DNA from: Candidatus Sericytochromatia bacterium
GTDB lineage: Bacteria > Cyanobacteriota > Sericytochromatia > S15B-MN24 > UBA4093
Direction of reading: 5' to 3'
DNA length: 10,213 nt
NCBI GenBank assembly: GCA_036676985.1
Contig: JAKFBU010000074.1
Span: 1-10,213, forward strand
Made by a program: the position numbers and the translations under genes. Of this stretch, positions 124 through 10,213 are shown piece after piece (within the stretch, counting starts at the first letter, position 1; each line of letters opens with the position of its first letter). Below the pieces are notes generated by a model. The model saw only the letters and a program-made list of their open reading frames with translations, searched no databases and was not told the origin of the DNA.

Positions 124-186
124 GAGCAGCAGGCCTGCCGCTGAAAGCAGGAGCATGCGGTGCGGAAGCGTGAAGCGTCTCGTCAT
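1..186 (-). CDS. 5' part of G1 lipoprotein (signal peptide and start of N-terminal domain); continues through the terminal repeat into 9308-10213
   Basis: Not in the ORF track. ATG at 186-184 reads MTRRFTLPHRMLLLSAAGLLLLLLAACMPQGILGSAEDETPPIVGTVTFPRYVVQATISEVA: basic N-region, Leu-rich H-region and LAAC lipobox. The ATG overlaps the G7 TGA stop (ATGA, 183-186). GGAG at 195-198 lies 8 nt upstream. In frame with the 9308-10210 ORF across the repeat. Confidence 0.88.
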   Translation of the reverse strand, partial: MTRRFTLPHRMLLLSAAGLLLLLLAACMPQGILGSAEDETPPIVGTVTFPRYVVQATISEVA

Positions 187-1646
187 AGGGCCGTCTCCCC
201 TCCGACCGCAGCGGCCGGCTCGGGCGACAGGTACTGGCGCAGCGAGACATCGTCCCAGTAGGCGTTGGATTGGTAGGACGAGTTCATGCCGCCCCGGATC
301 ATGAGGCCGTTGTACGCCTGGGTATCCGCCGCAGTGCCGATTTGAACCCCGTCGACGAGGTAGGTCGTGGTGCCGTTGTAGCGACGGAACTCGTAGCGGT
401 GCCAGCCCGCCGTGCGGGCGACCGTGGTGTTCAACCAGCCACTACCGGTCGGACGGTAATGGAAGTTGGACCCGGCCACGGCCGTGTAGACGCCGATGAC
501 GCTCGTTCCCCAGTCGCCGACGATCGGCCCGATCCAGTCGTTGCGGGTGGTGTCCAGGTCGTCCTTGAACCAGGCATCCAGCGCGAAGTTGGTCGGGATC
601 GTCAGGTACCGTGCGAGGTCACGCGAGTAGTCGCTGGTGTTGGTATTGATGTTCAGGGCGTTGCCGGTCCGGCCCTGGCCGGCCGCCGCCGCGATCGTCG
701 ACAGGCCGCGGACGGTTTGCCAGCCCTGGTGGTGAATGTCCGCCGTCTGGTACTCGAAGCCGTCGAATAGGTCGTAGACCTGGGCGCGTTCGCTCGGGGC
801 GGCGATCGCCATGTTGTTGCCGTAGGTCACCAGGTAGTTGGCATCGGTGCCTGAGGCGGCGATCGCTCGCTGGAGCCGGAAGCGAATCTGGGAGTTCGTC
901 GTGTTGGGGCTCTCTACCTCTCGAAAGAGCTCCACGTACTTGTTGCCGTCCCAGTAGAGCACGTGGAGGTCGGCCATGTCCGCCCGCAGCTTGGCGCCCG
1001 TGACGAGCGACGAGGTGTTGAGGGCCAGGGTGGCGACGTACCCCGCGGGCGCCGCCAGGGTCGACGTGACGGTGATCGTGCGCCGATAACCCGCCATGAG
1101 CTGGGTGTTACCCGTCAGATTGCCGGCCGTGGGCCCCTGGGCCGTGCCATTGAGCGGCAGGATGCGCAACCCCGCGTTGACGTTATTCACGCCCGAGCCG
1201 ATCGCAAAGGATTGGGGAGGGTTGGTGAAGGGGTTCACGTTCCTGGGCTGACCGAGGGCCGGATCGCTCGAGGCCGGATCGAGCTGATTGGTGTAGGCGA
1301 GGCGAGCGCCCGAGCCGTTTCGCGCCTCGGCCTCCAGCGTGTAGCCGCCCCCTACGGGCAGGGAGTCCAGGGTCACGGTGTAGAGCGTCTGGCCTCCGAC
1401 CAGCGGAATGTTCGTCGAGCGGGGGACACCCAACAGGGCCGCGTTCGAGAGCATGGCGACGATGTTCGCGCTGCCGCCTGGGATGGTGGCCGTCTGATAA
1501 CCCGGCAGCGCCTCGGGCGGCACCCGCAGCGTCAGCTGGATGGTGCCCGTCTGCGCGGCGACTGCCCCCGGCGAGCCCGCGGGGCCCGGAGTGGGGTGGC
1601 ATCCGGCAAGGGCCAGTGCCGTCGACAGCAGGAGGGCCTGTCGCAT
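183..1646 (-). CDS. G7: lipoprotein (about 487 aa) with N-terminal Ig/transthyretin-like domain, DUF2341-like domain and C-terminal ConA/LamG-like beta-sandwich
   Basis: ATG at 1646 gives MRQALLLSTALALAGC (LAGC lipobox); the alternative GTG at 1658 adds 4 aa. YRRTITV...LNTSSLV..KLRADMADLHV...ELFREVE....IRFRL..AIAASGT..YLVTYGN (about 815-1088) matches the DUF2341 pattern as I recall it. DLFDGFE...GW...LDAWFKDD...GWHRYEF...YLVDGVQIG...YWDDVSLRQY..PEP is a typical lectin-like jelly-roll following DUF2341. Confidence 0.85.
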   Translation of the reverse strand: MRQALLLSTALALAGCHPTPGPAGSPGAVAAQTGTIQLTLRVPPEALPGYQTATIPGGSANIVAMLSNAALLGVPRSTNIPLVGGQTLYTVTLDSLPVGGGYTLEAEARNGSGARLAYTNQLDPASSDPALGQPRNVNPFTNPPQSFAIGSGVNNVNAGLRILPLNGTAQGPTAGNLTGNTQLMAGYRRTITVTSTLAAPAGYVATLALNTSSLVTGAKLRADMADLHVLYWDGNKYVELFREVESPNTTNSQIRFRLQRAIAASGTDANYLVTYGNNMAIAAPSERAQVYDLFDGFEYQTADIHHQGWQTVRGLSTIAAAAGQGRTGNALNINTNTSDYSRDLARYLTIPTNFALDAWFKDDLDTTRNDWIGPIVGDWGTSVIGVYTAVAGSNFHYRPTGSGWLNTTVARTAGWHRYEFRRYNGTTTYLVDGVQIGTAADTQAYNGLMIRGGMNSSYQSNAYWDDVSLRQYLSPEPAAAVGGETAL

Positions 1647-1659
1647 GGCGACCCACACG

Positions 1660-3612
1660 CTAGGGGGTGGCCTCCAGGCTGACGCCGTAGAGGCGGGGGG
1701 TCGTGTTGGCAGAGGCGCTCGGCCCCGTTCCGCCGCCTACCAGGGGGCCGGAGTTGGTGAGCATGGTCGAAGTGTCCGGCGCCAGCGTGGCACGGATCTG
1801 GATCCAGCGGTGGCGGTTGTGGACGGGGTTGGCCGCCGTTCCGCTCGCGGTGTAGTAGTCGCCCGCGCCGGTGGGACCGTACCAGGTGGCCGAGTTGAGA
1901 CCCGAACGATCGGTGGCCGAGCGCATCTGGAAGCGCACGGTCTGGCCGTTGACGGCGACGGTGTTGAAGTTGAGCCGGCCATAGAGGGGAGCGGCCGAAC
2001 CCATGTCCATGGGCTGAGAGGTCCAGGTGCCGCTCGACGGGAACACCCGGCCGGCCGTGCGATGAACGGTGCCGGTGGTGTAGTCGCCGAACCAGAACTT
2101 GTTGTTCACGACGTCGTAGGTGCCGTAGATCGGGTCGTCCGTTTGGGCTCCCGCATTGTAGAGCTGGGCGAAAGTGGTCTCGGCCTCGAGCTGACCGTCG
2201 GCCAGGCGGTAGCGGCGCATGCGGGCCGGGGTGTTCGGGTTCCACTCCATGGCAAAGACGTAGACGCCGTCCGAGAAGAAGCTGTCGGTGTAGTAGGACG
2301 TGCCGGCCAGGGGCGTGTTGCTGCCGTCCAGCTGGATCTGGCGCACCATCGCGAACGAGAGGGCCGGGTCGTAGACGCGCATGACGTGGCCGTTGTAGGG
2401 CGTCGTCGGCGCGGTTTCCTGGGCGCCCAGGGAGTTGATGCGGTACGAGCCGCTGTAGAGGTAGGTCCCGTCGGTGAAGAGCGTCGACCAGTCGCCCACG
2501 TCCGACAACCCCGAGTTGCGCCTGAGTACGGGGGCGCCCACGGTCACCGTGCTCAGGGCCCCCGTCGAGACGTTGATGCGCTCGACGGTCGTGCTACCGC
2601 CACCCTGGCCCATGTAGATCTGACCGCCGATGAAGGCCGCCGAGAGGGTGTCCGCGGGAATCGAGCCGTACGCCCCGGAGTTGAGACCGGCGGTCGTTCC
2701 TCCGAAGCCCGTTCCGACCTTGGAGAAGGCGACGCCCGAGCCGCCCCAGGGGCGAACATGCAGATAGACGCCGTCACAGGCTACCAAGCCCGAGACCGAC
2801 AGGCCCGTCGAATAAGAGAACTCCGAGCCCGTCTTCGGACGGGGCAGCCCGCCGCTCAACTGGACCGAGCCGTCCAGCATCAACCAGGTGCTGGAGAAGG
2901 TGCCGTTGTTCAGGTCGGGGCTCACGACCACGGCGCGATCCGACACCACCGAGAAGGTGGTTCCGTTGAGGCCGATGCGAGCGACCGGATCGAGATCGCG
3001 CCACAGGAGATCCGAGACCAGATCCCGGACGGCCTGCCAGTTGGCGTTGAGGGTGGCGTTGCCCGAGGTCACGGTGCTGCCCGAGACCACGCCCATGGTC
3101 TCCGCGAATCCGACGGCCGAGAGCTTGGCCTTGATGAGCGACACGGCTGTCGTCGTGGGGTTGATCGTGATGGTCGCGCCCCCCGTGCACGAGTTCCAGG
3201 CCGTGCCCGTCCACTGGAGGATGGTCCGCATGCGGACGGCGTTGCTCGCCGACGTGCTGCTCGAGAGCCCCTTTATGGCTTCGACCGTGTAGTAGGCGCC
3301 TGCAGCCGGCGTGAAACTACCGGTCACGTCCAGCGAAAAGGCACCCGCGGCGTCGGTGACCGTGGCCGCCACCGTCTGGCCCGCCGCGTCGATGATCGAG
3401 ACCGTGGCGCGGCTGACGACATCGCCGGTGGTCGCCGCGACCTGCCGCTCGCCGGGGAAGCTGACCTGGCCCTGAAGACGAGGAAAGACCTCGCGGGCGG
3501 ACACCTTCGCGGGACCCTGTGCCATCGGGGTGATGGGCAGCGCCTGACAGCCCAGGAGCAGGGCTCCCGAGGCCAGGGTGACTAGCGTTCCAATCCGCGA
3601 GCGCTGGCGCAT
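1660..3612 (-). CDS. G6: 650-aa lipoprotein, paralogue 3 (conserved N-terminal domain, DGxYLY beta-propeller, C-terminal beta-sandwich)
   Basis: MRQRSRIGTLVTLASGALLLGC (LLGC lipobox). AGGAGG at 3617-3622 overlaps the G5 stop. Aligns end to end with G4 and G5 (TDAAGAFSL, RTILQW, DPxARI, KVGTGFGGT, YTD, RRYRLxDG, ATWYGPT, TPRL). Confidence 0.92.
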   Translation of the reverse strand: MRQRSRIGTLVTLASGALLLGCQALPITPMAQGPAKVSAREVFPRLQGQVSFPGERQVAATTGDVVSRATVSIIDAAGQTVAATVTDAAGAFSLDVTGSFTPAAGAYYTVEAIKGLSSSTSASNAVRMRTILQWTGTAWNSCTGGATITINPTTTAVSLIKAKLSAVGFAETMGVVSGSTVTSGNATLNANWQAVRDLVSDLLWRDLDPVARIGLNGTTFSVVSDRAVVVSPDLNNGTFSSTWLMLDGSVQLSGGLPRPKTGSEFSYSTGLSVSGLVACDGVYLHVRPWGGSGVAFSKVGTGFGGTTAGLNSGAYGSIPADTLSAAFIGGQIYMGQGGGSTTVERINVSTGALSTVTVGAPVLRRNSGLSDVGDWSTLFTDGTYLYSGSYRINSLGAQETAPTTPYNGHVMRVYDPALSFAMVRQIQLDGSNTPLAGTSYYTDSFFSDGVYVFAMEWNPNTPARMRRYRLADGQLEAETTFAQLYNAGAQTDDPIYGTYDVVNNKFWFGDYTTGTVHRTAGRVFPSSGTWTSQPMDMGSAAPLYGRLNFNTVAVNGQTVRFQMRSATDRSGLNSATWYGPTGAGDYYTASGTAANPVHNRHRWIQIRATLAPDTSTMLTNSGPLVGGGTGPSASANTTPRLYGVSLEATP

Positions 3613-3620
3613 CGGACCTC

Positions 3621-5501
3621 CTAGGGCAAGACCTCGAGGCTCAGGCGGTTGAGCTTCGGGGTGGTGAGCAGGTCCTGCGACGTCATCGTCGCGCGTACCT
3701 GAAGGTAGCGGTTCTTGGCATGGACGGAGTTGAGGGCCGTCCCGCTCTCGATATAGGCATCGGTGGTACTGGTGGGGCCGTACCAGGTGGCCGTGCCGAG
3801 GCCTGCCAGGGTGGTGGCCGAGCGGATCTGGAAGCTCAGGCCGTCCGCCCCCTGGACGTCGCTCACCCAGGTCAGGCGACCGAAGAGGGGAGTGGCCGAA
3901 CCGGTGTCAAGCGTCCCCGACTGCCAGGTCCCCGTGGGGATGTAGGAGCCGCCGCGCAGGAGATGGATGTTCTCGTTGCTCAGGTTGCCCATCCAGAAGA
4001 CCTTGTTGTAGGGGTCCCACGTGCCGTTGAGGGGGTTGTTCGCAGGGGCGTTGTAGGCCTGGAAGCCGAACGTGTAGTCATGGATGCGCGGAAACGTCCA
4101 TTCGTCTTCCCGGGCGCCGTCCGAGAGCCGGTAGCGACGCATCTTGGGGGTCGGGTTGGCGTTGTTCCATTCCTGGAGCCAGAGGTAGGTTCCGTCGCAG
4201 TAGATGCCGTCCGTGTAGAACGAGTTGGTATCCATGGTGAACTGCCGCACGAGGCGGAAGCCCTGGCTCGGGTCGAGGACCTGGATGGTGTAGCCGCTGT
4301 AGACCACGTCGTTGATGCCGAACGAGGACGTATACATATACCGGCCGTCCGAGGTGATGAGGGGGCGACCGTTGACCGAGTTGTTGCCAGAGTAGTTGGT
4401 CAGCCGGACGGGCAGGTCGATGACGGAGCTGGCTCCCGTGGTGGTCGAGACCCGGTACAGCTGCGTGTTGGCGCCGTTCAGGGTGGAATAGACATACCCG
4501 TCGTGATAGGCCACGCTGATGCCGTAGGAGGGCGGGGCCGACCCCAGCATGCCGTAGTTGGCCCCCCTCACCGTGCCGTTGAAGCCCGTCCCGATCTTCT
4601 TCAGGGTGTGGTTGGTGTTGGAGTTGCCGCCGAACTCCCCCCAGGCCTTCACGTAGAGGTAGGTGCCGTCGCTGGTGATGGCGCCCACCGTGTTGGGAGC
4701 CACGTTCGCCGCCGCGAAGGTCTCGATCTCCGAGGCCGGATCGTTGGGAGCGGGCTTCGGTGGCCCGAGCACCAGTGCCCCCAGTTCGTCCAGCCGGGTC
4801 TCGGCGAAGGTGCCCGTCTGGAAGTTCTCGACGATGAGCGGCTGGGCCTTGTTGGGCATGGCCCGGTAGCTGCCGCTCACGAGCGAGATCCGGGCGAGCG
4901 GGTCCTGATCCTTGGCCAGCAAATCCCGCACCAGCGTGTTGAGGGCGCTCCAGTTGGCCGTGATCGTCCCGTTGCCCGAGGTGACGGTCGCTCCCGAGAC
5001 CGTCCCCAGCGTCACGGTCGGGGCGATGGTGCCCGAGTTGAGTCCCTGGATCACGCACACGGCCGTGGTTAGCGGGTTGACGACCACCGTCGTGCCCGAG
5101 GTGCTCGTCCAGCCGTTGGCCGTCCACTGGAGGATGGTGCGCAGCCGGGCCACGTCGCCGCCGGCCAGGTTGTTCCGCGTGCCCTTGTAGACGTCCAGGT
5201 AGAAGACGTCGCCCGCGGCCACGGCAAAGGACGCCCCGGGCAAGAGGCTGAAGGCACCCGCGGCGTCGGTGCGAGCGCTTGCGACCGTCTGGTTGGAGGC
5301 GTTGAGGAGGGTGACGGTGGCGAGGCTCGTGAGGTCTCCGGCGGCGATCTGGGTCCGGCGCTCGCCGAAGTCGGCCGTGCCCTGGAGGCGGTACTGCTCC
5401 TGCGCCTGCACGGATCCCGTCGGCGCGGACTGGGGAAGGACATGGCAGGCGGCGAGGGCCAGGGCCAGCGCCACCAGGCCCGCGTGGTGCAGGGACCTCA
5501 T
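3621..5501 (-). CDS. G5: 626-aa lipoprotein, paralogue 2 (conserved N-terminal domain, DGxYLY beta-propeller, C-terminal beta-sandwich)
   Basis: MRSLHHAGLVALALALAAC (LAAC lipobox). ATGA overlap with the G4 stop at 5498-5501. GGAGG at 5509-5513. Clear paralogy with G4 and G6. Confidence 0.92.
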   Translation of the reverse strand: MRSLHHAGLVALALALAACHVLPQSAPTGSVQAQEQYRLQGTADFGERRTQIAAGDLTSLATVTLLNASNQTVASARTDAAGAFSLLPGASFAVAAGDVFYLDVYKGTRNNLAGGDVARLRTILQWTANGWTSTSGTTVVVNPLTTAVCVIQGLNSGTIAPTVTLGTVSGATVTSGNGTITANWSALNTLVRDLLAKDQDPLARISLVSGSYRAMPNKAQPLIVENFQTGTFAETRLDELGALVLGPPKPAPNDPASEIETFAAANVAPNTVGAITSDGTYLYVKAWGEFGGNSNTNHTLKKIGTGFNGTVRGANYGMLGSAPPSYGISVAYHDGYVYSTLNGANTQLYRVSTTTGASSVIDLPVRLTNYSGNNSVNGRPLITSDGRYMYTSSFGINDVVYSGYTIQVLDPSQGFRLVRQFTMDTNSFYTDGIYCDGTYLWLQEWNNANPTPKMRRYRLSDGAREDEWTFPRIHDYTFGFQAYNAPANNPLNGTWDPYNKVFWMGNLSNENIHLLRGGSYIPTGTWQSGTLDTGSATPLFGRLTWVSDVQGADGLSFQIRSATTLAGLGTATWYGPTSTTDAYIESGTALNSVHAKNRYLQVRATMTSQDLLTTPKLNRLSLEVLP

Positions 5502-7390
5502 GGCAACACCTCCACGCCCACGCTCTGGAGCTTGGGGGATTGCAGGGTGTCGGTGGTGGCCATGGTCGCCTGTACCTGGAGGTAGCGCTGCTTGAGGTGG
5601 ATGGGGTTGAGCAGCGTGCCCGAGGACGTGTAGGAGTCACCGGCCCCCGTGGGCCCGTACCACGTGGCTGCCGAGAGATCGGCGAGGGTGTTGGCGGACC
5701 GGACCTTGAAGGAGAGGGTGGTGCCCGCGGGCGTGGTCGCCGTCCAGGTGAGGCGGCCGTACTGGGCGGCCCCCGACTTGGAGTCCAGGGCGGCCGTGGT
5801 GTAGGTGCCGCCCGTGTGGTGGTTGCCGCCCCGCAGCAGGTGGATCTTGTCGCTGGTCAATTGGCCGAGCCAGATGACCTTGTTGACGGGATCCCACGAG
5901 CCGGAGATGGGGTCGTTGTCCGCCGCATTGTAGTTCGAGTTCGTGACGGACTGCGTGAAGGTGCCCTCGTACTCCCGGACGCCATCCGATAGGCGGTACC
6001 GACGAATGCGCGAGGCGCCGTTCTCGAGCCACTCGATCGGGTAGAGGTAGGTCCCGTCCGCGACGAATCCGTCGGTGTAGAAGGACGAGGTGTCCATGGT
6101 GAACTGGCGAACCAGGCTGAAGCCGTTCGCGGGGTTCAGGACCATCACGTGGAAGCCGTTGTACTCGGTGTTGGACCGGGCGTTGACGCCGAAGGCGAGG
6201 TTGTAGACGTAGGTGCCGTCGCAGGCGAAGAGCGTCGAGAGGCCGGGCGCGCCACGATAGCGCTCGAGGGTGGGCGAGGCCATGGTCACGGTCGTCATGA
6301 CGCCGGTCGCCGCGTCCACGCGGCAGAGCTCGTTCACCGTGCCGGTACTGGAGTAGATGCCGCCGTTCCAGTAAAAGGCCGTGATCGAGGGGGGAGTGGC
6401 AGGACCTACCGTGCCGTAGTTCTGCCCGCGGGTCGTGCCGTTGAAGCCCGTCCCGATCTTCTTGTAGACCTGAGCGTTGGCCGTGGTGTTGGCGTAATTG
6501 CTCCAGGCCTTCACGTAGAGGTAGGTGCCGTCGGTGGCCACGCATCCCGTGCCGTCGTTGGCCATGCCCGCCGCCTGGAAGTAGGCCGTCTCGGAAGACG
6601 CGTTGCGGGGCAGCGGCTTGGGACCCGCCAGCTGGAGGTAACCGGAACCGTCGAGGGCCGTATCCGTGAAGCTTCCGCCCTGGAAGCGCTCGATCTTCAC
6701 CACGGAGGCCGCGTCGGGGATGGCCGCGTAGCGGCCGCTAGAGAAGCCGATGCGCGCGACGGGGTCCTGGTCCTTGGTCAGGAGGTCGGTGACCAGCGTC
6801 GTGACGCTGCCGCCCACCTGGGCGAAGGCCGGGACGGTGGAGTTGACGCTCGTACCCGTGACGGTGTTGAGCGTGTCCCGGGGTGAAAGGATACCGGAGT
6901 TGAGTACCTGGATGACGCAGACGGCCGTGGTCGCGGGGTTGATCAGGACCGGGGATCCGGAAACGCTGTTCCAGCCCGCTCCGCCCCATGCCACGATGGT
7001 GCGCAGGCGGACGACGTCCGAGCCGATGCCGGAGGTCGTGGCCGTCTTGTAGGCGTCCAGCACGAAGGTGTCGCCGACCGCGGGCACGAAGCCCGTGCCC
7101 GGGTCCAGCGAGAAGGCGCCGGCGGCATCGGTGCGTCCCACGGCGATCGCCTGGTTGCTCGAATTGTAGAGGGTAACGGTCGCTTGATTGACGACCCCGC
7201 CCGCGATCAACTGCACGGTGCGGTCGGGAAACTCGACCCGACCGGCCAACCGGAAGGCCGTTGAAGCGGGAGCCAACTGATCGCTGGAGGGCAGGGAGGG
7301 CGTTGCCGGGCTGCATGCAGCAGCGGTCCCCAGCAGCAGGGCTGCCAAGCCGTTTACAAGCGAACGATTGAAACGGTCGCAAATCGGCAT
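5498..7390 (-). CDS. G4: 630-aa lipoprotein, paralogue 1 (conserved N-terminal domain, DGxYLY beta-propeller, C-terminal beta-sandwich); probable first gene of the transcription unit
   Basis: MPICDRFNRSLVNGLAALLLGTAAAC (AAAC lipobox). Strong AAGGAGG at 7399-7405, 8 nt before the ATG. Follows the only substantial intergenic region. Paralogous with G5 and G6. Confidence 0.92.
   Translation of the reverse strand: MPICDRFNRSLVNGLAALLLGTAAACSPATPSLPSSDQLAPASTAFRLAGRVEFPDRTVQLIAGGVVNQATVTLYNSSNQAIAVGRTDAAGAFSLDPGTGFVPAVGDTFVLDAYKTATTSGIGSDVVRLRTIVAWGGAGWNSVSGSPVLINPATTAVCVIQVLNSGILSPRDTLNTVTGTSVNSTVPAFAQVGGSVTTLVTDLLTKDQDPVARIGFSSGRYAAIPDAASVVKIERFQGGSFTDTALDGSGYLQLAGPKPLPRNASSETAYFQAAGMANDGTGCVATDGTYLYVKAWSNYANTTANAQVYKKIGTGFNGTTRGQNYGTVGPATPPSITAFYWNGGIYSSTGTVNELCRVDAATGVMTTVTMASPTLERYRGAPGLSTLFACDGTYVYNLAFGVNARSNTEYNGFHVMVLNPANGFSLVRQFTMDTSSFYTDGFVADGTYLYPIEWLENGASRIRRYRLSDGVREYEGTFTQSVTNSNYNAADNDPISGSWDPVNKVIWLGQLTSDKIHLLRGGNHHTGGTYTTAALDSKSGAAQYGRLTWTATTPAGTTLSFKVRSANTLADLSAATWYGPTGAGDSYTSSGTLLNPIHLKQRYLQVQATMATTDTLQSPKLQSVGVEVLP
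6434..6533. repeat. Two perfect blocks shared by G4 and G5: 6434-6463 = 4572-4601 (30 bp) and 6503-6533 = 4641-4671 (31 bp)
   Basis: cgtgccgttgaagcccgtcccgatcttctt and ccaggccttcacgtagaggtaggtgccgtcg each occur in both genes, separated by 39 bp of divergent sequence in both copies. Confidence 0.85.
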
Positions 7391-7474: not shown

Positions 7475-8491
7475 CTACTCCGTCACCGTGATCGAGGCCG
7501 TCGCCATCAGCGTCCCCGACATGATGGCGATCTGCGCGGATCCCGTCGCCTGCGCCGTGAAGCGCCCCTGCCCGTCGATGGTCCCCACCGCGAGCGACCC
7601 GGTCGAGTCGGGGATGCCGTCCTCGATCCCCTGGATCCGGTAGTTCGAGATGGGCGCTGACGTCAGCGGCCCGCTCACGCTCCACGTCACCGCCGGAGTG
7701 CCTGAGAACGCTGCGTCCGCGGACGTCGTCGCCCGTGCCGTGAAGACCGCCACGTCCCCCGAGGCCACCGTCAGCTCCGCCGGGAAGATGTCGAGCTGCT
7801 TGAGCACCGTGAAACTGCCCGAGCCAGTCCCTGTGACCCCGTCCAGGATGGGGACGATGGGCCCGGATACCGCCGACATGGGCACGAGCACCGACACCGT
7901 CCCCTCCATCGGCGGATAGACCACCGAGACCGGCACACCGCCGAACGTGAAGCCTGGAACGAGCCCCCGATCCTGCCCGAAGCCGGAGCCGTAGATCTCG
8001 ACCGCAATACCCGGCCCCCCGTTGTCCGGCGAGAAGCCCGTGATGCTCGGGACGAACGCCGCGTTCAAGGCGACCGTCACGTTGGTGCGCTCGTTGGCCA
8101 GCACGTTGAAGGGGGAGCTCACGCCAGAGGCCACCAGCCGATGCGCCGGGTAGTTGTCGAAAGCCTGCACCGTGAGGGTGTAGCCGTTGCCGACCTCCAC
8201 GCTCAGCGTGGCCGTGCTCGTGGGCGCCGAGCCCTCGGGACGGAAGACCTCCGTCGTCTGGCTCGTCGGCCCGTTCAGCTGGAAGCTCAGGTGCTGCGCG
8301 CTCGTCGGCAGGACCTGGGCCCGATAGGGCCAGCGGATGGTGACGGCCACCTCGCTCGGTGTGCCCTGGGCCGTCGGACGCGAGTCCATAATGGAATCGG
8401 TCCGCACGAGCGGCTGGAGACCGGGAGCATGGCAGCCCACCACGAGGGCGAGGGCGGCAAGGGCCGTGTACTTCAGGGGCTTGTATCGCAT
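7475..8491 (-). CDS. G3: 338-aa lipoprotein with N-terminal Ig-like domain, IPT/TIG domain and Big_2-like Ig domain
   Basis: Start reassigned to the ATG at 8491 (MRYKPLKYTALAALALVVGC, VVGC lipobox; GGAG at 8497-8500; 2 nt after the G2 stop). PSITGFSPDNGGPGIAVEIYGSGFG...TFGGVPV...VSVLVP..AVSGPI is IPT/TIG-like. LDIFPAELTVASG...VTWSVS...GTIDGQGRFTAQATGSAQI....ASITV is Big_2-like. Confidence 0.88.
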   Translation of the reverse strand: MRYKPLKYTALAALALVVGCHAPGLQPLVRTDSIMDSRPTAQGTPSEVAVTIRWPYRAQVLPTSAQHLSFQLNGPTSQTTEVFRPEGSAPTSTATLSVEVGNGYTLTVQAFDNYPAHRLVASGVSSPFNVLANERTNVTVALNAAFVPSITGFSPDNGGPGIAVEIYGSGFGQDRGLVPGFTFGGVPVSVVYPPMEGTVSVLVPMSAVSGPIVPILDGVTGTGSGSFTVLKQLDIFPAELTVASGDVAVFTARATTSADAAFSGTPAVTWSVSGPLTSAPISNYRIQGIEDGIPDSTGSLAVGTIDGQGRFTAQATGSAQIAIMSGTLMATASITVTE

Positions 8492-8493
8492 GT

Positions 8494-9300
8494 TTACTCC
8501 AGCGTGACCGAAACCGCGCCCTTGGCGCTGACCGTCAACTCGCAGGTGGCCTTCTTCAGCGGGTCCTGGGTGGACCTGGCCTCGATGACGCACGAGCCGG
8601 AACCGAGGGCCGTCACCAACCCCGTGAGGCTCACCGTCGCGATGCTCGGGTCGGAGACGACCCACGTGACGGCGCTCGTGGTGCTCTGGTCGCTCATGAC
8701 CACCGTCGGGGTGAGCTGGGCCTTCGAGGGGTACTCGGGCAAGCTCGTGCCGTTCGCGGCCTGCTTGTAGAGCGAGAGGCTCGTGGGCAGCAGCTCGACA
8801 TAGGTGACCGTGAGCGGCTTGGTCGTGATGGTCGCGATCGCCTGCGCCGTGATGGACCCCGAGCTCGCCGTGATCGTGACCGGGCCGGCCGGCGCGTTGG
8901 GCACGACCTGCACGTAGCCCGCCGCGCTGACGCTGACCCGGCCCGGGGGGCTCGCGGTCCAGACGGCCGTGGTCGAGACCTGCCGCTGGTCGCTCATGGT
9001 TGCCACCAGGGCGAGCGCCTGGGCCCGCTGGTCGAAGCTCGCCATGGGGTCGCTGCTCAGGTTGAAGCTGGACGGCACGATCGCCAGCGACTTCAGCACC
9101 GGGACGGGCGTCGGGCTCGGGGTGGGAGCCGGCGAGGTTTCCGGCGCCGGGGTGGGCTCGCCGTTGCCGACCTCGCCGCCCAGCTGGTCGGAGGTCGTTC
9201 CGGTGGTCTTGCGGGGCGTCAGGAGGCCGGCCTCTTCGGGGCTGCAGGCCTGTGAGAGGACGGCGATCGCCAGGATGGCCATGAGACGATGGGTTCGCAT
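8494..9300 (-). CDS. G2: 268-aa lipoprotein with Pro/Thr linker and two bacterial Ig-like (Big_2, intimin/invasin-type) domains
   Basis: MRTHRLMAILAIAVLSQAC (lipobox-like SQAC). AGGAG at 9305-9309 overlaps the G1 stop. Linker EPTPAPETSPAPTPSPTPVP. AVWTASPPGRVSVSAAGYV...GPVTITASSG and VTWVVSDPSIATVSLTGLVTALGSGSCVIEARS are typical Big_2 signatures. Confidence 0.9.
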   Translation of the reverse strand: MRTHRLMAILAIAVLSQACSPEEAGLLTPRKTTGTTSDQLGGEVGNGEPTPAPETSPAPTPSPTPVPVLKSLAIVPSSFNLSSDPMASFDQRAQALALVATMSDQRQVSTTAVWTASPPGRVSVSAAGYVQVVPNAPAGPVTITASSGSITAQAIATITTKPLTVTYVELLPTSLSLYKQAANGTSLPEYPSKAQLTPTVVMSDQSTTSAVTWVVSDPSIATVSLTGLVTALGSGSCVIEARSTQDPLKKATCELTVSAKGAVSVTLE

Positions 9301-9307
9301 AAAGCTC

Positions 9308-10213
9308 CTAATACAACCCCGCGTTCAGGGTGCCCAGGACGGTCAGGGAGGGGATGCCGTAGATCTGGCCGTTGAGCCGGACCGTCACCATGCCGGTGGT
9401 GGCTCCGTTGGGGACCAGCACGTAGAGGGACTGGCGATCGCCCGAGATGCCCGTCACGGTGCCGCCGGCCCCTCCGTTGAAGGTCACGACGTTGTTTACG
9501 AGCGTCGTGTCGAAGGTGAGGCCCTGCAGGGTGATCGTCTGGTTGACGTTGCAGGAGGTGGGCGTGACGGTCAGGGACGAGCCCGAGACCTTGGGGATGA
9601 AACGCTCGGAAGGGCTCGTCTCGTAGGCGATGTTGGCCAAGGGGTCGGCGTTGGCGACGAGCAGCGTGACGACGAGCCCCCGGACGTCCGTGAACTCGCT
9701 GTTGGTCACGTTGGTCACGGGCGTGAACGTCTCGGGGCCGACCGACAGCTTGCCGATCAGGGTGTCGGGCGGGACGGCCGTCGGCCCCTTGTGGCTCGCG
9801 ATGACCGAGAGGGCGGTGGTGCCCTCGTTGAGGTAGATGGGCGAGTTGGCGATGGCGCTAGTGAGCGATCGCCAGCCGGCGTTGTACTGCAAGAGGGTCC
9901 GGACGCGCGCCGCGTCCCTTCCTGCCTGGTTGTTGCCGAGCCCCTTCATGGCCTCTAGGTAGTAGCTGCGGTTGGTGACCGGCTTGAAGCCCCTTCCGAA
10001 CGTCAGGCTGAAGCTCCCGCTCGCGTCCGTCAGGGTGGTGCCCAAGGAGACGTTGGTGGTCGCATCGATCAGGGTCACGGTGGAGGCGCTCGCCACCTCG
10101 GAGATGGTGGCCTGGACCACGTACCGGGGGAAGGTGACCGTGCCGACGATGGGCGGCGTCTCGTCCTCGGCGCTGCCGAGAATGCCCTGGGGCATGCAGG
10201 CCGCGAGCAACAG
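9308..10213 (-). CDS. G1 (3' part; 322 aa when joined to 124-186): lipoprotein with the same N-terminal domain as G4-G6 and a C-terminal IPT/TIG domain
   Basis: Open to the window edge. GTVTFP..VQA....ASTVTLID...TDASGSFSL...YYLEAMKGL.NN.AG.DAARVRT...GW.S...N..TTAL...DPLANI aligns with G4-G6. VTPTSCNVNQTITLQGLTFD....NVVTFNG...LYVLVPNGATTGMVTV (about 9335-9580) is IPT/TIG-like. Confidence 0.9.
   Translation of the reverse strand: MLLAACMPQGILGSAEDETPPIVGTVTFPRYVVQATISEVASASTVTLIDATTNVSLGTTLTDASGSFSLTFGRGFKPVTNRSYYLEAMKGLGNNQAGRDAARVRTLLQYNAGWRSLTSAIANSPIYLNEGTTALSVIASHKGPTAVPPDTLIGKLSVGPETFTPVTNVTNSEFTDVRGLVVTLLVANADPLANIAYETSPSERFIPKVSGSSLTVTPTSCNVNQTITLQGLTFDTTLVNNVVTFNGGAGGTVTGISGDRQSLYVLVPNGATTGMVTVRLNGQIYGIPSLTVLGTLNAGLY
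10091..10213. repeat. Terminal direct repeat, right copy (identical to 1-123)
   Basis: Exact match to positions 1-123, implying a 10,090-bp unit length. Confidence 0.97.

Follow-up and report, generated by a model that had tools for sequence, protein, structure and literature searches.

We analyzed a window of 10,213 nucleotides (nt) from a Candidatus Sericytochromatia bacterium; this window is the complete contig C74 of a 4.68-Mb genome assembled in 79 contigs. The host is a non-photosynthetic relative of cyanobacteria, and we found no photosynthetic reaction-center genes in its genome. The minus strand of the window is packed nearly gap-free with seven open reading frames (ORFs). Three of them, G4, G5, and G6, carry an unnamed, widespread prokaryotic five-bladed beta-propeller cassette, mounted here on lipoprotein stalks. 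Four further propeller genes lie at the end of another contig (C56), giving seven paralogues in a single locus. The three window genes and the parts of G5 are as follows.

5498-7390, minus strand: G4, 630 amino acids (aa; P0002), with the propeller module at 5807-6658 and the blade-1 hallmark at 6413-6466
3621-5501, minus strand: G5, a 626-aa lipoprotein (P0001), from the ORF list, its translation, and a full-length AlphaFold2 model
1660-3612, minus strand: G6, 650 aa (P0003), with the propeller module at 2029-2886 and the hallmark at 2686-2727
5445-5501, minus strand: G5 signal peptide with lipobox LAAC (Cys19), read from the sequence
4857-5396, minus strand: G5 stalk module, residues 36-215, with an Ig-like beta-sandwich and then a helical subdomain (DSSP of the AlphaFold2 model)
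4731-4856, minus strand: N-terminal strands of the propeller-carrying beta-sandwich of G5, residues 216-257 (AlphaFold2 model)
3942-4730, minus strand: five-bladed beta-propeller of G5, residues 258-520 (AlphaFold2 models)
4551-4604, minus strand: G5 hallmark LKKIGTGFNGTVRGANYG, comprising blade 1 strand C, a glycine-rich loop, and strand D
3624-3941, minus strand: C-terminal beta-sandwich part of G5, residues 521-626 (model strands 523-625)

We built two AlphaFold2 models of G5. The full-length model, from an alignment of 28 homologues, reached a mean predicted local distance difference test score (pLDDT) of 85.1, with propeller blocks mostly above 90; the propeller-only model had a pLDDT of 81.2 and a predicted template modeling (TM) score of 0.84. 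By DSSP, both models contain five blades of four antiparallel strands each, at residues ~274-319, 330-362, 381-423, 430-469, and 490-516, which confirms the proposal of a first-pass annotation that the region encodes a bacterial beta-propeller. In the full-length model, an Ig-like sandwich (~39-141) is followed by a helical part (143-204), and strands 205-245 and 523-625 together form a second sandwich, with the five blades inserted between the two strand sets. G4 and G6, which are 48% and 40% identical to G5 over the whole protein, share its plan of a lipobox, an Ig-like and helical stalk, and a beta-sandwich with a nested propeller. On the stalk, Pfam matches were limited to CarboxypepD_reg and bMG3, both sub-threshold.

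The same annotation had quoted ten sequence motifs from the window; we recovered all of them from the minus-strand proteins, with positions that differ by at most one base from those given. The interval that it had assigned to the domain, 3950-4690, corresponds to G5 residues 271-517, that is, the propeller itself, and each quoted DG motif makes up the inner strands of one G5 blade in the AlphaFold2 models. The motifs outside the hallmark lie at the following positions.

4650-4676, minus strand: TSDGTYLYV (G5)
4485-4508, minus strand: YHDGYVYS (G5)
4329-4355, minus strand: TSDGRYMYT (G5)
4176-4202, minus strand: YCDGTYLWL (G5)
3993-4019, minus strand: WDPYNKVFW (G5)
2455-2481, minus strand: LFTDGTYLY (G6)
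2371-2394, minus strand: NGHVMRVY (G6)

In the full-length model, DSSP placed the two hallmark strands at residues 300-304 and 315-319, and G304, G306, T310, and G313 were invariant in the 28 aligned sequences. The regular expression [KR][IVLF]G[TS]G[FYLW].G[TS]..G occurred seven times in 9,353,428 six-frame genome residues, and all seven occurrences were in the seven paralogues. The hallmark is thus found far above chance.

We found no Pfam or NCBIfam model over the propeller of G4-G6, and Protein Data Bank (PDB) sequence searches with G4-G7 returned no match on the propeller. At E ≤ 10, 18 diverse members of the family matched Pfam models only sporadically, with DUF6923 in 7 out of 18, DUF5074 in 2 out of 18, and Glu_cyclase_2 in 1 out of 18. 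The family signature consists of a DGxYLYV inner strand and the blade-1 strand-loop-strand [KR][IV]G[TS]GxxGTxxGxxYG. Against the profile of alignment A3, which includes all three window proteins, G4 scored 315.8, G5 309.5, and G6 273.4 bits, and independent family members matched with E values of 1e-30 to 1e-250. G4, G5, and G6 each combine a full-length profile match with the blade-1 hallmark and are members of the family by this measure.

Twenty-seven proteins of 344-1096 aa matched G5, the named records among them being 'bacterium', Pantanalinema, and a compost metagenome; a 37%-identical relative obtained by the propeller-profile search is labeled Candidatus Sericytochromatia, and records with a Sericytochromatia label supply the closest named homologues. 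In species genomes, we identified 45 loci, comprising 25 from Latescibacterota, 9 from the Ignavibacteria group, 2 each from Omnitrophota, Myxococcota, and archaea (Iainarchaeum and Thermoplasmatota), and 5 from single-locus carriers (Spartobacteria, Gemmatimonadetes, Bacteroidetes, Coriobacteriia, and a 'Stenomitos' metagenome-assembled genome). The domain is rare in the phylum of the host, yet common in Latescibacterota and Ignavibacteria. Searching the profile against 1.84 billion representative sequences yielded 738 clusters at E ≤ 1e-3, of which 214 passed E ≤ 1e-10 and 126 passed E ≤ 1e-30; the best 150 of the 738 matches, which are those listed, all scored at least 100.9 bits. Within the host phylum, the domain was present in 4 out of 201 sampled genomes, belonging to two genera of one family, and two of these four genomes hold seven copies. 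This patchy distribution suggests that the propeller may have been acquired horizontally and then expanded locally. Mimicry of a eukaryotic partner, which the annotation had raised as an explanation, is unlikely because the domain spans many free-living bacterial and archaeal phyla.

Pfam scans of 59 of the best 150 profile matches showed that all 59 relatives are prokaryote-type extracellular proteins. RHS repeats were present in 29 of them, in which the propeller usually immediately precedes DUF6531 and the RHS shell; the toxin tips that follow the shell included Ntox44, Tox-REase-7, and Amidase_6. Three carried Peptidase_C25. The rest had FG-GAP, TIG, Big_5, LamG, CARDB, F5/8-C, or MopE domains or pilin-type N-termini, or were domain-free; HECT, PHR, and RCC1 domains were found in none of the 59. 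Some members contain two or three tandem propellers (P0030, P0145, and P0146). We also noted that P0217, P0222, and P0241 (5,958-6,495 aa) have a second GTGxNGT hallmark ~170-470 residues past the first, which in P0217 and P0222 falls within the same propeller match. In P0173, P0178, P0175, P0249, and P0276, the propeller follows an archaeal/type IV pilin-like N-terminus (UpsB-like; T4SS_pilin), and the propeller of these members may be displayed on or beside pili. In the accessible portion of a polymorphic-toxin survey (PMC3482391), beta-propeller repeats are named only generically.

The search at lengths of 638-2000 aa mostly returned C25 peptidases of ~1,900 aa that are PorU-like (below the cut-off) and end in a type IX secretion system (T9SS) sorting tail. 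These proteins, from Latescibacterota and Ignavibacteria, carry the same propeller-in-sandwich cassette as G5 at about residues 1208-1503, with 33% identity over G5 residues 225-531 and profile E values down to 1e-114. The flank co-aligns as well, since the match of the C25 peptidase P0031 begins at G5 residue 225. In the peptidases, the cassette follows the peptidase and CARDB domains and precedes the T9SS tail, whereas G4-G6 have no peptidase. Indeed, Pfam detected neither RHS repeats nor Peptidase_C25 in G4-G7, and the propeller cassette is the sole part shared with these relatives.

The domain model superposed on solved five-bladed propellers across most of its length, the nearest solved folds being glutaminyl cyclase and olfactomedin. 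Identity to the structural neighbors was 4-14%, and the profile matched PDB glutaminyl cyclase at E 0.003 over 27 residues and otherwise NHLRC2. We conclude that the fold is known, while the sequence family is undescribed in the libraries searched. A Foldseek search with the full-length model had mostly returned seven-bladed WD40 chains and chains of phage tails, all with poor TM scores, and we replaced it with the domain model. The best ESM Atlas scores, 0.83 and 0.82, were at chance level and came from generic propeller and lipoprotein clusters only.

Several known propellers resemble that of G4-G6 in part. Glutaminyl cyclase (PDB 3mbr, 3nol, and 2iwa) is 9-12% identical and lacks the blade-1 hallmark; it is a free-standing enzyme, whereas the G4-G6 propeller is inserted into a beta-sandwich that a lipoprotein stalk carries. 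The olfactomedin domain of latrophilin, gliomedin, and olfactomedin-1 belongs to an animal extracellular family, again with 9-12% identity, and we obtained no olfactomedin Pfam match in G4-G6 or in the 18 family members. The propellers of the phage phi11 receptor-binding protein (5efv) and phage NF5 (9m7x) are phage tail parts, with 11% identity and no hallmark. An NHL propeller precedes the YD/RHS shell in teneurins (PMC5851990, PMC6425310). In teneurins and teneurin-like toxins, it occupies the same place as the propeller of the 29 RHS-containing relatives. By contrast with G4-G6, which have five blades and no RHS part, the NHL propeller has six blades and its own Pfam family (PF01436); NHL matches were absent from G4-G6 and, at E ≤ 10, from the 18 members.

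The remaining features of the window are as follows.

183-1658, minus strand: G7, a 491-aa lipoprotein with a weak DUF2341-like stretch
7475-8491, minus strand: lipoprotein ORF with a weak Big_2 match
8494-9300, minus strand: lipoprotein ORF with Big_2
9308-10213, minus strand: lipoprotein ORF with the stalk module and a weak TIG match
1-123, no strand assigned: end repeat, identical to 10091-10213 and to the last 123 nt of C56 (reverse complement); assembly junction

The start and stop codons of G4 and G5 overlap, and only 8 nt separate G5 from G6 and 1 nt G6 from G7; from this tight spacing, we read G4-G7 as an operon. The end of C56 carries four more propeller genes (G4', G5', G6', and G6''), G7', and the start of the 9308-10213 ORF. 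We considered whether the window is a circular plasmid and ruled this out: the 123-nt end repeat also ends C56, and the last C56 ORF continues into the window. Because of this shared end and the continuing ORF, the window continues one chromosomal locus. It is a repeat-bounded piece of a chromosomal locus with a duplicated G4-G7 cassette, and overall identities of the duplicated pairs were 76% for G4/G4', 83% for G5/G5', 62% for G6/G6', and 78% for G7/G7'. We found no Rfam families in the window, and promoter- and terminator-like sites were no more frequent there than in shuffled sequences.

By eye, a lipobox cysteine closes a hydrophobic N-terminal signal in seven out of seven window ORFs. 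The tetrapeptides read from the sequences were AAAC in G4, LLGC in G6, and LAGC in G7, alongside LAAC in G5, and the cysteine column is kept in most full-length homologues (alignment A1). An extracytoplasmic location, as the annotation had proposed, is therefore supported by the predicted lipoprotein signals of the window ORFs and by the presence of the domain elsewhere in T9SS-tailed C25 peptidases, RHS toxins, and pilin-headed giant proteins. We found the G5 stalk module (about residues 10-220; window 4842-5472) again at 31 other sites of this genome, within ORFs of 231-1401 aa spread over at least 14 contigs, with differing C-terminal parts. This recurrence suggests that the stalk marks a lineage-specific modular lipoprotein family with exchangeable heads. 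As for G7, its Pfam DUF2341 score was 19.1 bits, under the cut-off of 23.4. In P0160 and P0183, from other phyla, DUF2341 is fused to the propeller, and LamG fusions occur likewise. G7 may therefore act together with G4-G6, and these fusions hint at a functional partnership.

Taking the sequence and model evidence together, we consider the heads of G4-G6 to be, with reasonable probability, extracytoplasmic ligand-binding propellers on lipid-anchored stalks. The lipobox cysteine would anchor each protein, the stalk would hold the propeller head away from the membrane, and the head would bind a ligand, which may be a glycan or a protein. The seven paralogues of the locus would then cover a diversified range of binding specificities. 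Aspartates bind a structural metal inside the central channel of olfactomedin and of glutaminyl cyclase; D278, D385, and D436, on the inner strands of G5, may do the same.

We favor such diversified binding heads because of the accessory extracellular contexts of the domain, the recurring stalk, and the faster divergence of the propeller. All contexts in which the domain occurs are secreted or surface proteins, where it is accessory beside catalytic, toxin, or adhesin parts. Within the duplicated pairs, identity was lower in the propeller than in the stalk, at 67% versus 82% for G4/G4', 82% versus 94% for G5/G5', and 55% versus 71% for G6/G6'. The propeller was also less conserved than the C-terminal sandwich in two of the three pairs. 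Three observations weigh against a diversified binding head. In G5/G5', the C-terminal sandwich is the less conserved part (79% versus 82% for the propeller). The best structural neighbor is an enzyme, and there is a weak glutaminyl cyclase signal in the sequence. Finally, the near-invariant residues of the family are mostly Gly, Asp, Tyr, and Thr. Such residues can have a structural role alone, in which case the hallmark loop would stabilize the fold rather than bind.

A further proposal, compatible with a function as a binding head, concerns evolution: MYCBP2 and HECTD4, giant E3 ubiquitin ligases of eukaryotes, may contain a propeller-like region that has escaped annotation and whose counterpart in prokaryotes is the propeller described here. 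The first-pass annotation had put this forward from approximate MYCBP2 and HECTD4 strings. Our profile and structure searches covered proteins of 638-2000 aa, the best 150 of 738 matches, and PDB chains, a reach that excludes MYCBP2 and HECTD4, and within it they returned generic propellers only. Provided that the quoted strings are accurate, their scores on a matrix of 234 family hallmarks are 36.7 and 24.2 bits, against maxima of 19.4 and 17.5 bits in a null set of 5,000 random sequences of 4,600 aa. Our literature search found no propeller of this kind described in either ligase, including in the accessible part of PMC13061254, whose supplementary table, as far as it was available, gives E3 class and UniProt accessions only (O75592 for MYCBP2 and Q9Y4D8 for HECTD4).

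An exact back-translation of the quoted MYCBP2 string had no matches in metagenome contigs. We then scanned the contigs with a looser pattern fitted to both quoted strings, which returned three near-identical metagenome records (L060-L062), each the end of a 19-20-kb record. These carry a 1329-codon frame that is open at both ends (protein P0297). P0297 contains low-complexity tracts, variously acidic, rich in serine, or rich in Lys/Glu, and one stretch that weakly matches RAD23-type ubiquitin-like sequence (E 0.018). In P0297, blade 1 comes first and the ubiquitin-like stretch second; about 150 Lys/Glu-rich residues then precede a UBA-like stretch, which we recognized by eye only. Eight soil metatranscriptome RNA runs hold the frame in full. 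These runs and the composition of the tracts fit a giant eukaryotic mRNA, which would be the simplest identity of the P0297 transcript.

The P0297 hallmark, KIGTGLHGTLRGHVY, was selected by the search pattern, so the match is partly circular, the motif itself having picked out P0297. A DGNYLYV strand 20 residues upstream of the hallmark was not selected, and its spacing is family-like. This strand scored 29.8 bits on the family matrix (family median 32.5), a value reached by 0 out of 200,000 random 40-aa windows, whose maximum was 15.7. Aligning the family alignment with P0297 by hhalign gave a probability of 83.3% and an E value of 8.6e-6 over 60 columns, and BLASTP of P0297 against G4 gave 32.7 bits (E 1e-4; 20/54 identical). 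Judged by these comparisons, P0297 shares the first blade of the family. However, the family profile scored only 24.8 bits against P0297, covering blade 1 and a single DG strand at 764-782. By our own arithmetic, this score would correspond to an E value of about 0.9 in the 1.84-billion library and would not be a blind match. The absence of HECT, PHR, and RCC1 from the 59 scanned relatives and the silence of the literature searched also count against the proposal. We also ran phmmer with one of the giant prokaryotic members as query on proteins of 2,990-9,515 aa, a weak test in that only 1,121 candidates were scored. It gave three matches at E ≤ 1, including the query; two have prokaryote-type Pfam domains and the third is domain-free, and a eukaryotic origin is established for none.

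The eukaryotic link drawn by the first-pass annotation is thus supported in part, through the first blade, which is shared with a eukaryote-like giant protein. HECTD4 is a candidate identity for P0297, and homology of the whole domain to MYCBP2 or HECTD4 is possible on the sequence evidence. We regard a true counterpart in these ligases as a serious possibility that falls somewhat short of an even chance. We consider it possible, at similar odds, that a prokaryotic extracellular binding propeller gave rise to a much-diverged propeller, or to a remnant of its blades, close to the N-terminal end of HECTD4/MYCBP2-type ligases.

It is unlikely that the proteins are instead an envelope structure, such as an S-layer-like or matrix scaffold, in which the propeller serves self-assembly. 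Such a role would accord with the many paralogous lipoproteins that bear the same stalk in this genome, the seven propeller copies within one locus, and the two or three tandem propellers of some members. However, divergence is faster in the propeller than in the stalk for three out of three pairs, a pattern more in keeping with changing partners than with a fixed lattice, and the domain is not a core envelope part because only 4 out of 201 sampled phylum genomes contain it. Less likely still is an enzyme on the cell envelope, glutaminyl-cyclase-like or glycoside-hydrolase-like: it could draw on the Glu_cyclase_2 match in one of 18 members (E 0.0098) and on the short PDB cyclase match, but cyclase identity is 9-12%, G4-G6 have no Pfam Glu_cyclase_2 (PF05096) match at E ≤ 1, E444 is the sole acidic near-invariant residue outside the DG strands, and the domain serves as an accessory module next to true catalytic or toxin domains.

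If the link to the giant ligases is true, the well-behaved bacterial heads could provide structural and functional models for an uncharacterized substrate- or partner-binding region of these enzymes. If the blade-1 match reflects descent, it would offer a first handle on the unannotated region of HECTD4- or MYCBP2-type proteins and would add another bacterial extracellular module to those recruited by eukaryotes. The family counts at least 738 representative clusters, yet no Pfam or NCBIfam model covers it, and once it is named, thousands of surface proteins now listed as 'hypothetical' could be better annotated. The cassette recurs in RHS toxins, T9SS-linked C25 peptidases, and giant adhesins, all of which are relevant to microbial interactions, and characterizing the family would indicate the targeting module of the RHS toxins and C25 peptidases.

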